Assembly: GCA_028282585.1 (NCBI GenBank)
Contig: JANQHR010000093.1
Span: 1-26,339, forward strand
Direction: 5' to 3'
Length of the DNA stretch: 26,339 nucleotides
Source: Bacteroidales bacterium
GTDB lineage: Bacteria; Bacteroidota; Bacteroidia; Bacteroidales; UBA12077
Part shown: one piece after another, positions 17,110-26,189 of the stretch
Numbering within the stretch: position 1 is the stretch's first letter
How the letters are laid out: every line of letters begins with the position of its first letter
Notes under the pieces: generated by a model
Told to the model about the DNA's origin: nothing
Database searches by the model: none
The model's input: the letters and a program-made list of their open reading frames with translations, nothing else
Translations under genes and position numbers: made by a program

Positions 17110-19089
17110 TTAATCTTTATAGTGTTTAAATTTTTTATATAATGATTGATATGTATTTTCAAATAAAGAATATTTTATTTCATCTCCAAATTTTAAAATA
17201 AGATTACCATCGAAATCAACTAAACAATAATAAAACTGCATATTAGCTGTATCTCTATATTTTACAATAATAGTGTTTTGAAGTTCACCCGATTCAATAA
17301 CATATTCCATAAATCCTCCTGATATGGATTTAATATTATTAGTATGGGTATCATATCTATCTATCCCTGCACCAAAAGCAGCACTCGCATCGGTTCGCCA
17401 ATTATTATTTACAAATATATATTTCTTACATTTAGAAAAATATACATAAAGATAGCTCCCCCTATAAACTCCAATATCATATTCTCTAATAGTCATAAAA
17501 TCTTTCCTTATACTTAATTTTATTTTTGATAAATAAGTATCTTCATAACTATAATAATATTTTCCTTGTTTATATATATTATATGTTATACCATCGTATA
17601 CTGTATTATTGTAATATTTAGGTATTGATTTCCATTGTTTTATTTTTCCATCAAAATATTGAATTTGTTTCTTTATCCTTTTAGCTTCTTTACTATTTGG
17701 ATAATTATTGATAAATCTTCTATAAACATTAATATTAGGATTTTTTAAAAGATAATTCCAATCACTATTTTTTTTATTTTCTTTTTTTATACGATTAACA
17801 GTATTTTCAGCATCCTTTCGATAATGCCCATCGGGAAAATCTTTCAAAAATTTCTCAAAATTTTCAAGATTATTTGAGTTTTCAATTTTTTCCCATCGAA
17901 CATATTCAAGATCATTCTTGGCTCGTGAGACATTTTTACTGTTTGGATATTTTTTTATAAAATCTTTTAATGATTTACCATCATATTCAAACATATGGTT
18001 ACGAGCATATTCCCAAGAAACTCTTTCTTCTCCTAATATTATTTTTCTTACAATACCTAATTCACGAGAATAACTATATGTTATTAAGGCAATTAAAGCA
18101 ATTAGAATATATATAATATTTGCTATTTTCTTTCTTTTATTTTTCTCCTTAAATTTCTTAAATATTGATTCAGATTCAGAAACTAATTCGCCAATATAAT
18201 TTATACAATCCCATTCTTTTTTTTCTTTGACAGCAATTAATTGATCTGGTAAGATTTTATATTTTTTGTATTTACAGGGTACAATCAATTTTCCTGATGC
18301 GTTTATAAATCCATATTTATCACCACGTTTTAATTTTGCTATATCATCTTTAAAATCAGCAATTACATTATACTCACACGGGAGTATAATTGCCCCAGCT
18401 TTATCTAATAAACCGTATTTTCCATCTTTACTAAATTTTATAAAACTATCCCCAAAATCAGAAAATTTATCATATTCACATTTAAGAATTTCTTTACCAA
18501 GATTATTAATTAAACCACCTCTTGTAATATCTTGATATATATTATGCGTATTTTCCCTGACGGTGACTACACAAAAATTTCCTGAAAAATCACTTATACT
18601 AAAATATTTATTTTGTGTGATTTCTTCTCCTTTTTCATTTATTAATAAGTAATAATCGTCATATTTTACTTTTGCAACATGGTTATTAAAGTCATGGATT
18701 TCAGTATATTTAAACGGGGTTATTTCTTTACATTGTGCATCTATAAATGTCCATTTATCATCTCTTTTCACTCTTGCAAAACCATTAATAAATTTGAGGG
18801 CAAAATCATATTTAAAAGGGGTTAATTCATTCCCGTTATTATCTACAAAAGCAAATTTATTGTTAAATTTTACAACTGCCTTATTTTCAAAAAATTCACC
18901 AGCAAATGAATATTTAGCGGGGACAATTACATCTCTGGTATTAACATCTTTATAGCCAAATAAACTACCTGTTCTAAATGGCTCTAAATTACCATTAAAG
19001 TAAGAAACTTGATCTATTTGCTGACTACCGCAATGTATACAGAATTTGGAGTCATTATCAATTTGCTTTCCACACTTATTACAAATCAT
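17110..19089 (-). CDS. zinc-ribbon + WG-repeat + TM + helical-repeat protein
   Basis: MICNKCG...KFCIHCG; about 7 WG-type repeats (FENKAVVKFNNKFAFVDNNG, FINGFARVKRDDKWTFID, KYGFINASG); TM IANIIYILIALIALITY; three F-x-x-x-(Y/F)P repeats. Confidence 0.85.
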   Translation of the reverse strand: MICNKCGKQIDNDSKFCIHCGSQQIDQVSYFNGNLEPFRTGSLFGYKDVNTRDVIVPAKYSFAGEFFENKAVVKFNNKFAFVDNNGNELTPFKYDFALKFINGFARVKRDDKWTFIDAQCKEITPFKYTEIHDFNNHVAKVKYDDYYLLINEKGEEITQNKYFSISDFSGNFCVVTVRENTHNIYQDITRGGLINNLGKEILKCEYDKFSDFGDSFIKFSKDGKYGLLDKAGAIILPCEYNVIADFKDDIAKLKRGDKYGFINASGKLIVPCKYKKYKILPDQLIAVKEKKEWDCINYIGELVSESESIFKKFKEKNKRKKIANIIYILIALIALITYSYSRELGIVRKIILGEERVSWEYARNHMFEYDGKSLKDFIKKYPNSKNVSRAKNDLEYVRWEKIENSNNLENFEKFLKDFPDGHYRKDAENTVNRIKKENKKNSDWNYLLKNPNINVYRRFINNYPNSKEAKRIKKQIQYFDGKIKQWKSIPKYYNNTVYDGITYNIYKQGKYYYSYEDTYLSKIKLSIRKDFMTIREYDIGVYRGSYLYVYFSKCKKYIFVNNNWRTDASAAFGAGIDRYDTHTNNIKSISGGFMEYVIESGELQNTIIVKYRDTANMQFYYCLVDFDGNLILKFGDEIKYSLFENTYQSLYKKFKHYKD

Positions 19090-19759: not shown

Positions 19760-19833
19760 TGGAGCATAGCGGAATCGAACCGCTGACCTTTTGACTGCCA
19801 GTCAAACGCTCTAGCCAACTGAGCTAATGCCCC
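19760..19833 (-). tRNA. tRNA-Ala (anticodon GGC), CCA not encoded
   Basis: Reverse complement GGGGCATTAGCTCAGTTGGCTAGAGCGTTTGACTGGCAGTCAAAAGGTCAGCGGTTCGATTCCGCTATGCTCCA; G3:U70 pair; anticodon arm TTTGA-CTGGCAG-TCAAA; T-loop GGTTCGATTCC. Confidence 0.97.
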
Positions 19834-23560: not shown

Positions 23561-24052
23561 TTATTGCAAAGAATCAGTTAGTGTATTTTGGAAGTAATAT
23601 TCTGAATCAATAAAAGTTAAGCTTGAATCTACTCTTTCTTCTAAAAACTGAACTAATTCAAGTAATTCTGTTACCTCAATTAAATATTCTGTTTCAGAAA
23701 TATCATTATTTAAATATTCATTTCTTACTGAATTAAGTTGATCTTTTGCAAAATAAATTTCCTGTTGTATTTGAAAAGCTATTTCATTTAATTCAGTTAA
23801 ACTTTTTTCTATAAACTGATAAAAACCTAACGAGTCTGGAAGGTTTAATACTTGAATTATTGAATCTCTTTTAGTACTATCGTCTGAAATAAAATAAAGG
23901 TTTTTTGATATTTCATCAAAACTTAGTTGTAAACGACTTAAAAGACTATCTGTAACAGAAGTTAATCTATCTAAATCAGATAAATCTTTTTCTTTTTTAT
24001 TAGTACAACTTGTTGTTAATAATATAATTAATCCAATAAATAAAATCCTCAT
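23561..24052 (-). CDS. helical hypothetical lipoprotein
   Basis: MRILFIGLIILLTTSC lipobox when started at ATG 24052. Confidence 0.7.
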   Translation of the reverse strand: MRILFIGLIILLTTSCTNKKEKDLSDLDRLTSVTDSLLSRLQLSFDEISKNLYFISDDSTKRDSIIQVLNLPDSLGFYQFIEKSLTELNEIAFQIQQEIYFAKDQLNSVRNEYLNNDISETEYLIEVTELLELVQFLEERVDSSLTFIDSEYYFQNTLTDSLQ

Positions 24053-24151
24053 GATATCAGATATTATAAGGAAATAATAATACAAATAATTTTACAGATA
24101 AAAAAAGAGTAGTTATTAGAGCACTCTTCATCAAATATCATTAAACGTTGT

Positions 24152-25447
24152 TTAATCAATAATATCAAATCCAGTATATTTTCTTAATATCTCTGGAATA
24201 ACGATCCCTTCTTCAGTTTGATTGTTTTCGAGTAAAGCTGCCAAAATTCTTGGTAATGCTAATGCGCTTCCATTTAAAGTATGTGCTAATTGCGGCTTCT
24301 TTTCTCTACCTGCCGACGAGGCAGGTACCTCTTCTTTATACCTTAATCTTAATCTGTTTGCCTGGTAAGATTCAAAATTGGAAACAGAACTAACTTCTAA
24401 CCACTTTTTCTGGGCTACAGAAAACACTTCAAAATCATAGGTTAAAGCAGAAGTAAAACTTATATCACCACCACAAAGTTTTAATATTCTATAAGGCAAG
24501 TTTAATGACTGAACTAGACCTTCTACATGATTTACCATTTCATCCAATGTATCGTATGATTTTTCAGGATGTTGAAACTGAACTATTTCAACCTTATCGA
24601 ATTGATGTAAACGATTTAAACCACGAACATCTTTACCATATGAACCAGCTTCTCGTCTGAAACATGGAGTATAAGCAGTCATTTTTATTGGAAAATCTTT
24701 AGAAGATAAAATGTCTCCTCGAAAAATATTTGTAACCGGCACTTCTGCAGTTGGTATTAAATATAAATTATCAGCAGTTACGTGATACATTTGCCCCTCT
24801 TTATCCGGTAACTGACCTGTTCCAAAACCGGAATCCTCATTCACCATCAAAGGCGGCATCACTTCCATATAACCTGCTTCAATAGCCTTGTCAAGAAAAT
24901 AGCTAATTAAGGCTCTTTGTAGTTTTGCACCTTTTCCCTTGTAAACAGGGAAACCACTTCCGGTAAGTTTATTCCCTAGCTCAAAATCAATAATGCGATA
25001 TTTCTTTGCTAAATCCCAATGTGCCAAAGCATTCTCAGACAAAACAGGCATTTCTCCTCCCGCTTTTACTTCAACATTATCATCTTCTCCTTTGCCGTTG
25101 GGAACAGATTCATGCGGTAAATTCGGTATTTGAACTAATAAATCGTTCAGTTCTTTTTCAATGGATGCTAATTCATCATTTTGCGATTTAACCAAATCTT
25201 TTAACTCAGTATTTTTAGCCTTTAACACATTTGCTTCATTTACTTTTCCGCCTTTAAACAACATTCCTATTTCTTTGGATATTTTATTTAATTCTGCCTG
25301 GTTTTTATCCATGCTATTTTGAGTAGATCGACGTTTTTGGTCTAAATCCAAAATTTGATTTATTAAATCTTCAGCTTGAAAATTCTTAATATTTAATCTT
25401 TCAATAACTAAATCTTTATTCTCCTGAATGAATTTTAAGGTTAGCAT
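24152..25447 (-). CDS. serS: serine--tRNA ligase
   Basis: N-terminal coiled coil, LIPTAEVP, CFRREAGSYGKDVRGLNRLHQFDKVE, EVSSVSN, HTLNGSALALPR. Confidence 0.98.
   Translation of the reverse strand: MLTLKFIQENKDLVIERLNIKNFQAEDLINQILDLDQKRRSTQNSMDKNQAELNKISKEIGMLFKGGKVNEANVLKAKNTELKDLVKSQNDELASIEKELNDLLVQIPNLPHESVPNGKGEDDNVEVKAGGEMPVLSENALAHWDLAKKYRIIDFELGNKLTGSGFPVYKGKGAKLQRALISYFLDKAIEAGYMEVMPPLMVNEDSGFGTGQLPDKEGQMYHVTADNLYLIPTAEVPVTNIFRGDILSSKDFPIKMTAYTPCFRREAGSYGKDVRGLNRLHQFDKVEIVQFQHPEKSYDTLDEMVNHVEGLVQSLNLPYRILKLCGGDISFTSALTYDFEVFSVAQKKWLEVSSVSNFESYQANRLRLRYKEEVPASSAGREKKPQLAHTLNGSALALPRILAALLENNQTEEGIVIPEILRKYTGFDIID
24305..24327. repeat. short palindromic REP-like element inside serS
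   Basis: TACCTGCC-GACGA-GGCAGGTA (24307-24327) perfect 8-bp stem, GC-rich; shares CTGCCGAC(G)AGGCAGG with the rplU leader element. Confidence 0.7.
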
Positions 25448-25540: not shown

Positions 25541-25801
25541 TTATTCTTCGAAAGGAATAACCGATACGTATGATTTATTCCCTTGTTTTTTTCTAAATTC
25601 GATTTTACCATCAACTAAAGCAAATAATGTGTGGTCCTTACCCATACCAACATTTTCGCCAGGATAGTGTTTAGTTCCTCGCTGACGAACGATAATGTTA
25701 CCAGCTTTCGCATTTTGTCCGCCATATAATTTTACACCTAATCGTTTACTTTCCGATTCGCGACCGTTACGTGAACTACCAGCTCCTTTCTTATGTGCCA
25801 T
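25541..25801 (-). CDS. rpmA: 50S ribosomal protein L27
   Basis: [24 protein letters not shown]...[10 protein letters not shown]...GKDHTLFAL. Confidence 0.99.
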
Positions 25802-25817
25802 TTCTAAATATTTTTAA

Positions 25818-26132
25818 TTATTCTGTAATAATGTCTTCTACTTGAATTTGGGTAAACTGTTGACGATGTCCGTTTAACTTTTTATACCCCTTTCTTCTTT
25901 TCTTTTTGAAAACAAGCACTTTGTCACCTTTTTGGTGAGCTAAAATCTTAGCGGAAATTTTTGCAGCCTTCACGGTAGGTTTTCCGACTTTTACCTTTCC
26001 GTCATTATCTAACAACAGCACTTTATCGAACTCTACAGTTGATCCTTCTTCTTCCTCTAAACGATGAACAAAAATCTTACTGTCTTTTTCTACTTTAAAC
26101 TGTTGACCTGCTATCTCTACAATTGCGTACAT
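25818..26132 (-). CDS. rplU: 50S ribosomal protein L21
   Basis: [14 protein letters not shown]...[24 protein letters not shown]; adjacent to rpmA. Confidence 0.99.
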
Positions 26133-26150: not shown

Positions 26151-26189
26151 CCTGCCTGTCCTCCTTCAGAGGATAGATCGGCAGACAGG
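26151..26189. repeat. palindromic REP-like element with nested hairpin in the rplU 5' UTR
   Basis: Minus strand reads CCTGTCTGCC-GA-TCTATCCTCTGAAGGAG-GA-CAGGCAGG. Confidence 0.65.

Follow-up and report, generated by a model that had tools for sequence, protein, structure and literature searches.

A Seven-Codon Palindromic Insert in the serS Gene of a Bacteroidales Bacterium and the Family of 21-nt Repeats to Which It Probably Belongs

The seryl-tRNA synthetase (SerRS) gene, serS, of the Bacteroidales bacterium assembled as GCA_028282585.1 (referred to as G000) contains a GC-rich hairpin that has no counterpart in the serS genes of its aligned relatives. The gene lies on contig C83 (JANQHR010000093.1), which was analysed over its whole length of 26,339 nt and is referred to as the window. 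The hairpin is most probably one copy of a dispersed, insertion-competent family of 21-nt palindromic units. We put the probability of this reading at about 0.82, a figure that covers the insertion of a family member and not the enzyme behind it. Mobility is here inferred from the presence and absence of copies at orthologous sites.

The Hairpin in serS and Its Absence From Relatives

The gene and the two delineations of its insert are located in the window as follows.

24152..25447, minus strand: serS, seryl-tRNA synthetase of 431 aa (open reading frame, ORF; phmmer E 3.4e-122 to 2dq3_A)
24307..24327, no strand assigned: perfect palindrome TACCTGCC-GACGA-GGCAGGTA with 8-bp arms and a 5-nt loop, as delineated in an earlier reading of the sequence alone
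24305..24325, minus strand: the insert with unit boundaries taken from the family alignments, CCTGCC-TCGTC-GGCAGG-TAGA

The serS gene was fetched from 40 relatives, and 29 of these were aligned (22 congeners and 7 members of other families). All 29 have a 7-aa gap opposite the insert, reading RYKEE-G-EKK where G000 has RYKEE-VPASSAGR-EKKPQLAHTLNGS (EKK follows), and none has a loop of the same length built from non-palindromic codons. The sequence-only reading had pointed to a perfect hairpin of 21 nt just before motif 3, which is indeed seen at 24307–24327, and had held that its removal restores the usual SerRS loop length; the loop so restored matches 29/29 relatives. At the codon level the relatives have GAR GGW GAR vs GAG GTA CCT GCC TCG TCG GCA GGT AGA GAA in G000. 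A further 80 Bacteroidota serS loci match over 1254–1278 nt, and none of them reaches the 1293 nt of G000.

Excising 24307–24327 restores a GGA Gly codon as found in the relatives, and with the family-based boundaries the inserted peptide is PASSAGR following a Val codon. The inserted block is ambiguous by 2 nt, and it measures 21 nt under both delineations. A target-site duplication of the form TA..TA was considered for serS and rejected, as it would not yield a 21-nt difference from the relatives.

The stretch of the window was found in a single public run, which is labelled as a coral metagenome. A 14-kb Logan contig of run X1, built separately, has 0 differences over 23800–24800, but this run is probably the source sample and hence not independent data. 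A contig from run X2, a different sample from the study of X1, is ≈89% identical and lacks 2+1+18 = 21 letters at 24307–24329. The X2 contig spans positions 23800–24785 of the window (serS and its downstream neighbour), with the insert absent. With an insert-free relative in X2, the samples of that study hold two or more congeneric populations. Judged from the alignments, the serS copy was gained after the species split from the sampled congeners, whose SerRS identity is at most 89%.

SerRS aligns with the Aquifex enzyme 2dq3_A over residues 1–430, including the motif-3 region HTLNGS...LPR, and the extra residues fall as gaps between RFKDS and KNRFVHTLNGS, in the variable segment before the motif-3 strand. 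An AlphaFold model built from 21 sequences is of mediocre quality (mean predicted local distance difference test score, pLDDT, of 75.5). In this model the insert stretch falls between the strands 369–371 and 389–397, with residues 373–380 non-regular and a pLDDT of 65 for the block. No other SerRS-grade gene was found in G000, the only further match being weak (E 9.2e-4; a 654-aa ORF on contig C65). The enzyme is therefore presumably functional with the insert, as far as the gene content tells.

The 17-nt core of the hairpin occurs once in the window, and 0/100 dinucleotide shuffles give a match, even at 3 mismatches. Folded as single-stranded DNA it reaches −8.3 kcal/mol on the plus strand (z −4.87) and −8.1 on the minus strand (z −4.31), with 0/200 shuffles as stable. 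With 62% GC the 8-bp arm lies below the cut-off of our first scan (7 bp or more of stem at a GC of 0.7 or higher). The hairpins returned by a wider scan of GC-rich islands in G000 were mostly unrelated.

The 21-nt Unit and Its Copies in G000

The G000 assembly comprises 4.89 Mb in 173 contigs with 32% GC, and its estimated contamination is 3.89%. Its nearest named relatives by SerRS include Carboxylicivirga and Draconibacterium (Bacteroidales/Marinilabiliales-type), at 69–70% identity. The canonical form of the repeat to which we assign the serS hairpin is CCTGYC-N5-GGCAGG-CRGG, in which a GC stem of 6 bp encloses a 5-nt loop and is followed by a 3′ tail of 4 nt. Among aligned copies the four tail positions are C in 43/51, G/A in 44/51, G in 42/51 and G in 43/51, and the 5′ flank is unconserved. 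Because of this conserved 4-nt extension after the stem, the unit has to be regarded as asymmetric and 21 nt long.

Main variants of the unit are CCTGCCCGTCCGGCAGGCGGG, CCTGCCTTGCCGGCAGGCAGG, and CCTGCCTGTCCGGCAGGCAGG. Five of the seven main variants contain no stop in any frame; in the variants with TAGCC and TGACC loops, two of the frames contain a single stop each. Copies in non-coding DNA have the identical unit length of 21 nt, and the 3n length is therefore a property of the family and not just of the copies surviving in coding sequence. In this respect the sequence-only reading was mistaken: it took the serS copy for a variant kept in frame by an extra G, but the standard unit is already 21 nt (17-nt hairpin plus CRGG), outside genes as well.

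When G000 was searched with the 16 specified positions of the unit, there were 2, 7, 20, and 41 matches at no more than 0, 1, 2, and 3 mismatches, respectively; the reversed pattern, which served as negative control throughout the study, gave 0 at each level. The pattern CCTGCC-N(3–7)-GGCAGG occurs 11 times, and three of these occurrences have 5-nt loops and lie inside long ORFs. ORFs are here uncurated stop-to-stop frames, and some of 80–100 aa may be spurious. Scanning the genome for further copies, as suggested from the sequence alone, thus brought a family to light, with the motif at 41 sites in G000 when three mismatches are allowed.

Compared to the canonical unit CCTGCCTCGTCGGCAGG+CAGG the serS insert has 2 changes, and it has 2 mismatches to CCTGYCNNNNNGGCAGGCRGG. 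Both changes are in the tail (GGC to GGT and AGG to AGA) and both are synonymous, third-position and GC-to-AT. The exact canonical 21-mer, i.e., the serS 17-nt core with a CAGG tail, is present in two other genomes, G033 (L134) and G316. The serS tail may have drifted after insertion by these two synonymous changes, since drift from GC to AT is expected in a genome of 32% GC.

The in-gene copies of G000 were compared with its five closest congeners. A UbiA-family gene (PF01040) encodes a 7-aa insert, RLPNGQV, that is missing in 4/4 relatives, and a protein encoded on contig C169 has a 7-aa extra segment around TCPSGRQ that is missing in 2/2 close orthologues. Other copies are found in protein ends: in rpsA within a C-terminal tail that resists alignment, in grpE within the N-terminal tail, and in rsfS, as a diverged copy, at the N-terminus. 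The low-complexity C-terminal tail of rpsB (G000:C6:36731-36805) has two diverged units 54 nt apart. Gaps of 14 aa were seen at L090 and L097 of the congener G002; together with the rpsB pair they suggest that double insertions are common. A CTGCC...GGCAG stretch in sucD (C100:6031), TAPKGRRMGHAGA, presumably resembles a conserved native motif and was left out of the family count.

Units at G000:C7:61-80, C76:2461-2479, and C93:3379-3395 sit within a longer repeat, ...GTAGCTTCGAGAAGAGAGGGAGAA[unit]GGAGGGAG..., near contig ends. This longer repeat may be a larger one that breaks the assembly. The 10-mer GGGGGTGTCC / GGACACCCCC is found 26 times in G000 vs 0.47 expected, and seems to represent a further family of GC-rich repeats with no relation to the 21-nt unit.

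The rplU Leader and a 20-nt Sister Form

Further features of the window are given below.

26151..26189, minus strand: insertion of 39 nt in the rplU leader, 18 nt upstream of the ATG (from the sequence and the leaders of relatives)
25818..26132, minus strand: rplU (L21), from the ORF and tblastn of L21 against relatives
25541-25801: rpmA, after rplU and before serS
19760-19833, minus strand: tRNA gene (RF00005, 69.2 bits), the sole Rfam family in the window

The sequence-only reading had also noticed a related, non-coding copy 1.8 kb from the serS hairpin, and this proved to be an interrupted 20-nt unit in the rplU leader. Its plus-strand halves, CCTGCCTGTC (26151–26160) and GGCAGACAGG (26180–26189), have 19 nt between them; on the minus strand it reads as a 20-nt sister unit, CCTGTCTGCC + GACAGGCAGG, with the loop split by these 19 nt. 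The interruption forms a small hairpin of its own and contains GGAGG. The fold of the leader copy has a z of −2.46 (minus strand), and Rfam, searched over the whole window, has no family at either the leader or the serS hairpin.

Among the 25 readable rplU leaders of relatives, 24 have no insertion here, and one, that of G023 (L008), has a 21-nt unit at the exact point. By SerRS, G023 (85% identical) is a more distant relative than five species without a leader insertion (88–89%). Since the occupied species are non-sister, the comparison suggests that this site was either hit twice, as an insertion hot spot, or precisely vacated several times.

The 20-nt form (two 6-nt stem arms around a 4-nt loop, with a 4-nt tail) has uninterrupted copies elsewhere in G000. 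Allowing at most one mismatch it is found at 14 sites, of which 10 are intergenic, 3 are upstream of any ORF ATG and 1 is in a plausible coding sequence (CDS), whereas the 21-nt form is found at 9 sites with 5 in CDS. A 19-nt form has 2 sites and a 22-nt form 0, with all reversed controls at 0. The CDS shares of 1/14 and 5/9 differ (Fisher's p = 0.018), on small numbers and non-independent copies. A filter by which selection retains frame-preserving copies in genes, another part of the sequence-only reading, agrees with these shares, on small numbers. The 20-nt form is a sister subfamily with a 4-nt loop.

Insertions Across the Genus and the Phylum

The census of the genus and order covered 41 genomes (24 congeners and 16 from other families of the order). 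These genomes are related, as are the others sampled here, and are not independent samples. The 17-nt core was found in 21/24 congeners and 7/16 of the other families, with up to ∼30 copies (G002) and ∼50 copies (G033). The reversed control was 0 in all genomes but G030 and G034, both outside the genus.

From the congeners G002 and G024, 40 loci around copies were fetched. These hold 43 copies, 29 of which are inside ORFs of at least 80 aa. A G000 orthologue spans 21 of the in-ORF sites, and opposite the unit it has a gap of 7 aa at 11 sites, 14 aa at 2 and 15 aa at 1; the other 7 are in low-complexity stretches and have different gap sizes. By hand tally from the result tables, the 11 exact 7-aa sites amount to ≈9 distinct ones, L088 and L111 being orthologues and L116 and L119 paralogues.

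Ten clean cases were aligned as DNA, and eight of them show a single 21-nt gap that ends at the unit ends; the other two show 20- and 22-nt gaps arising from nearby alignment ambiguity. In L120, for example, TTTAAA[unit]TAAAGA stands against TTTAAATAAAGA in G000. There is no target-site duplication in any of the ten, and the flanks are otherwise continuous. All six classes of orientation and phase are used in ORFs, with 7, 1, 5, 4, 5, and 7 copies. Units are also nested in hairpin loops: in G002 a 21-nt unit inside a 20-nt unit recurs in six loci.

In histidine-kinase paralogues (G000:C59:14833-14853; L084, L087, and L090 of G002) units recur at one structural spot, just before the C-terminal G-(S/T)-x-F-(Y/T)-(F/V)-T-I-P stretch. 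This may be a tolerant loop that was entered repeatedly, or an old insertion that spread through gene duplication.

The phylum was covered by an even draw of 401 Bacteroidota genomes searched with the exact 21-nt pattern. It is present in 49 of them, with the reversed control at 0 in every row, and the same few unit variants recur across classes of the phylum. Copies in the distant genomes G409 (L266, L267) and G219 (L263, L264) share flanks, e.g., TCATGCCGAGCG[unit]RAGTCGAGGCAT. Because these flanks are identical between copies, the unit in G409 and G219 is nested in, or is the core of, a longer inverted-repeat element. The central proposal made from the sequence alone, a tiny family of palindromes that resembles repetitive extragenic palindromic (REP) sequences and enters proteins in frame, is supported by the copies in G000, the genus and the phylum and by the other 7-aa insertions.

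A Candidate Mobiliser

Full-length genes of the Y1_Tnp family (PF01797) are found in 38/41 relatives, and G000 has four PF01797 matches. G000 also has a gene resembling those for REP-associated tyrosine transposases (RAYTs).

C119:16548-17111: RAYT-like gene of G000, 188 aa, with NHLH, FWQ, and YIHNNP motifs (PF01797 E 1.8e-8)

RAYT-like genes of two relatives contain units themselves. The RAYT-like ORF of G009 (L069/L224, G009:C15, 221 aa) has two in-frame units, which are 2 of the 4 copies in G009, and the gene of G006 has one in-frame unit at the first of these sites, which is 1 of the 3 copies in G006. In both proteins CLPAGKAG is found between HuH and Y, and that of G009 also has LPVRQAG directly after Y. 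The latter stands between the presumed catalytic Tyr and the IHNNP of the Y motif, with the frame intact. In G019 a unit lies ∼40 nt past the end of a truncated RAYT-like match, outside the aligned part. No unit was found in 12 loci around full-length Y1 genes.

The RAYT-like gene of G000 is bracketed by similar direct stretches at C119:16430-16470 and 17170-17215 (GC-rich ...GCGCGTGA..., then AATAAACARAATAATAAAG). These stretches may be end structures of its own, unrelated to the 21-nt unit.

Origin of the Copies and Alternative Explanations

At sites that are empty in orthologues, copies stand as clean 21-nt blocks, in either orientation and in each of the three phases, within coding DNA and outside it. 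A hit in a gene adds seven residues with a high content of P, A, G, R, and S and leaves the gene unbroken, since the length of the unit is a multiple of three and the commonest variants are stop-free in all six frames. Such copies survive in loops, linkers and tails, and in SerRS in the variable loop before the motif-3 strand. The lack of target duplication, the hairpin with its 4-nt tail, the nesting in loops and the repeated hits in RAYT-like genes lead us to a model in which copying might proceed via a single-stranded DNA hairpin intermediate handled by a HUH/Y1-type enzyme, as is thought for REPs and RAYTs.

A number of observations weigh against this account, some on the insertion itself and some on the enzyme. 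No mobilisation event was observed, and mobility rests on presence and absence at orthologous sites. The serS tail is TAGA and not the canonical CRGG, and the family-based boundary at 24305–24325 needs a flanking Gly-to-Val change, whereas 24307–24327 restores Gly exactly. The flanks of 51 aligned copies and of the clean cases have no clear target motif; position −1 is A in 23/51 copies, with no consistent target word. In four distant genomes of higher GC, 20/23 copies lie where there is no ORF of 100 aa or more. Since the copies of these distant genomes are mostly outside ORFs, the heavy colonisation of genes is a trait of the AT-rich genus and not of the whole family.

With regard to the enzyme, 32 RAYT-like loci (gene size ∼0.6 kb) were scanned with ∼1.5 kb of flank each, and 0/32 are flanked by units in the manner of a REPtron. 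A Y1/RAYT transposase flanked by the palindromes, which the sequence-only reading had envisaged, was thus not found in that form. A RAYT-like match at E 1e-15 is absent from G033 (∼50 copies, 99% complete) and from G002 (∼30 copies, 71% complete). Across the phylum a RAYT-like gene is present in 18/49 unit-bearing vs 97/352 unit-free genomes, a weak excess among non-independent genomes (both counts by hand tally). For these reasons, i.e., no flanking units, two copy-rich genomes without an orthologue and weak co-occurrence, we assign the copying to a RAYT-like HUH/Y1 enzyme only tentatively and at somewhat less than even odds.

A serious competitor, to which we also give slightly less than an even chance, is a real copied family with another mover: an IS200-type Y1 enzyme, some other nuclease or recombinase, or capture of hairpin oligonucleotides during repair or template switching. 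It would account for the missing REPtrons and the weak co-occurrence. G033, with its ∼50 copies and no RAYT-like orthologue at 1e-15, does have IS200-type matches, and PF01797 genes are available nearly everywhere (full-length in 38/41 relatives, four matches in G000). Yet the 12 full-length Y1 loci scanned are without a unit, while units in or near RAYT-like genes are far above chance, with 2/4 copies of G009 and 1/3 of G006 in a 0.6-kb gene. Units in this place also mirror the hallmark of subclass 2.4 TnpA_REP genes as given in passages of PMC6006769.

Much less probable, in our view, is that the repeat is kept because it serves the host, whether as DNA (a site for protein binding or of the uptake type), as an mRNA hairpin or through a useful peptide, and that it owes its spread to recombination and selection and not to selfish behaviour. 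Many non-coding copies do lie near gene starts or ends. Some CCTGTC...GGCAGG stems can form all their pairs only in RNA, through G-U, and have T runs after them. The near-identity of 21-mers across classes of the phylum implies a constraint on sequence, but recognition by a mobilising enzyme would lead one to expect the same. All six frame and orientation classes occur in ORFs and give unrelated peptides, which argues against a protein motif under selection; moreover, copies arise as discrete 21-nt indels and not by point mutation, and they are found in unrelated genes, the candidate transposase included.

We find it very hard to see the serS hairpin as a product of local events (replication slippage, template switching at a quasi-palindrome or the scar of a repair) that resembles the family by coincidence. 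The TA + core + TA boundary, which restores the ancestral Gly exactly, and the missing canonical tail would fit such an origin. The relatives, however, offer no nearby sequence that could have served as template for the 13 nt of arm plus loop, and the identical core with a CAGG tail exists in G033 and G316, the differences in the serS tail being synonymous GC-to-AT changes. Two other G000 genes have 21-nt insertions with the same arms, against a reversed control of 0. An assembly or binning artefact can practically be dismissed in spite of the 173 contigs and the 3.89% estimated contamination of this metagenome-assembled genome, since the 14-kb Logan contig is identical (0 differences, though probably from the same reads), the reading frame stays open, and the same type of insertion is found in many assemblies, including single-contig genomes.

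Comparison With Known Systems

Like REPs, which are GC-rich palindromic repeats of 20–40 nt, the unit is a short GC-rich hairpin that is dispersed and has a lineage-specific copy number; its length is just 21 nt. Unlike them it has no GTAG/CGTC tag, its conserved tail being CRGG and 3′ of the stem, and the family has no REPtron arrangement (32 loci). In the genus it is also mostly intragenic (29/43 in G002 and G024), whereas REPs are predominantly extragenic. Frame-preserving intragenic REPs are nevertheless on record, including in tRNA synthetase genes, in passages of Di Nocera et al. (2013; PMC3733652). In Cyanobacteria and Bacteroidetes, TnpA_REP genes of subclass 2.4 have REPs in frame between HuH and Y according to sections of Quentin et al. 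(2018; PMC6006769), and proteins of subclasses 2.4/2.6 have NH[IFVL]H, WQ, and YIxNNP motifs and about 180–195 aa. Measured against that part of the description, the RAYT-like protein of G000 agrees in motifs and length, and those of G009 and G006 have in-frame units between HuH and Y.

The unit is missing from the REP consensus table in the supplement of PMC6006769, where all 13 occurrences of GGCAGG are unrelated. A full-text literature search gave no match to 17-mers of the unit, and the 10-mer matches listed were unrelated primers or repeats. Within the literature searched and this table, the sequence of the unit is undescribed.

Two other kinds of palindromic repeats are close in behaviour. 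The small dispersed repeats (SDRs) of Nostocaceae, which Elhai and colleagues reportedly described in 2008, are hairpins of 21–27 nt that are inferred to be mobile by orthologue comparison, leave no target duplication and are sometimes nested. By this description they resemble our unit in size, lack of duplication and nesting, and differ from it in host phylum and probably in sequence. Work by Ogata and colleagues from 2000 reportedly gives RPE-1, a Rickettsia palindromic element (RPE), a size on the order of 100–150 nt and has it add tens of residues. The paper on the Nostocaceae repeats (Elhai et al., 2008; Genome Res 18:1484) is cited, and SDR5 mentioned, in a passage of PMC5861425. Passages of PMC3733652 describe RPEs as inserted in frame within ORFs. 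Both RPEs and the present family are palindromic selfish repeats that survive in genes for essential proteins by adding peptide; the unit here, with 21 nt and seven residues, is ∼five times shorter or more (taking the reported size of RPE-1), and the host is free-living and not obligate intracellular.

Miniature inverted-repeat transposable elements (MITEs) make target-site duplications. They measure 70–300 bp and have terminal inverted repeats according to a passage of PMC3733652. The unit is like MITEs in being non-autonomous, palindromic and dispersed, and unlike them in its length of 21 nt and in leaving no duplication in the clean cases. IS200/IS605-type single-strand transposition puts elements beside a specific target of 4–5 nt and duplicates no target. 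For a comparison with IS200/IS605-type elements, the points at hand are the lack of duplication in the clean cases, the lack of a consistent target word and the rplU-leader site occupied in two non-sister species. The family works like REPs, RPEs and SDRs, yet it falls outside the definition of a REP by its tag, its lack of a REPtron and its extragenic location not holding in the genus.

Significance

A bolder synthesis, which we consider unlikely to hold in all its parts, is that of a frame-neutral selfish element: the unit would be shaped to seven codons, with stop-free main variants, and would move as a single-stranded DNA hairpin. A RAYT-like HUH enzyme would be the mover, and its gene would itself be a favoured site of insertion. 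One marine Bacteroidales genus would thereby have a steady source of 7-residue loops throughout its proteome. If true, coding DNA, including essential housekeeping genes, would become habitable for such an element, and the 20-nt form would be its natural control.

For the family as a whole, the copies in serS, rpsA, rpsB, and grpE mean that 21 bases suffice for a repeat to be insertion-competent and tolerated in essential genes. The family is also a natural system: orthologue alignments reveal independent, dated insertions of seven residues in large number, with a bearing on insertion-tolerant loops, on the recognition and copying of the smallest mobile DNAs, and on selection on element length (21 vs 20 nt). 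In Bacteroidota, recurrent 21-nt indels can mislead gene phylogenies and the typing of strains by indels, and such insertions explain odd loops rich in P, A, G, and R in predicted proteins.

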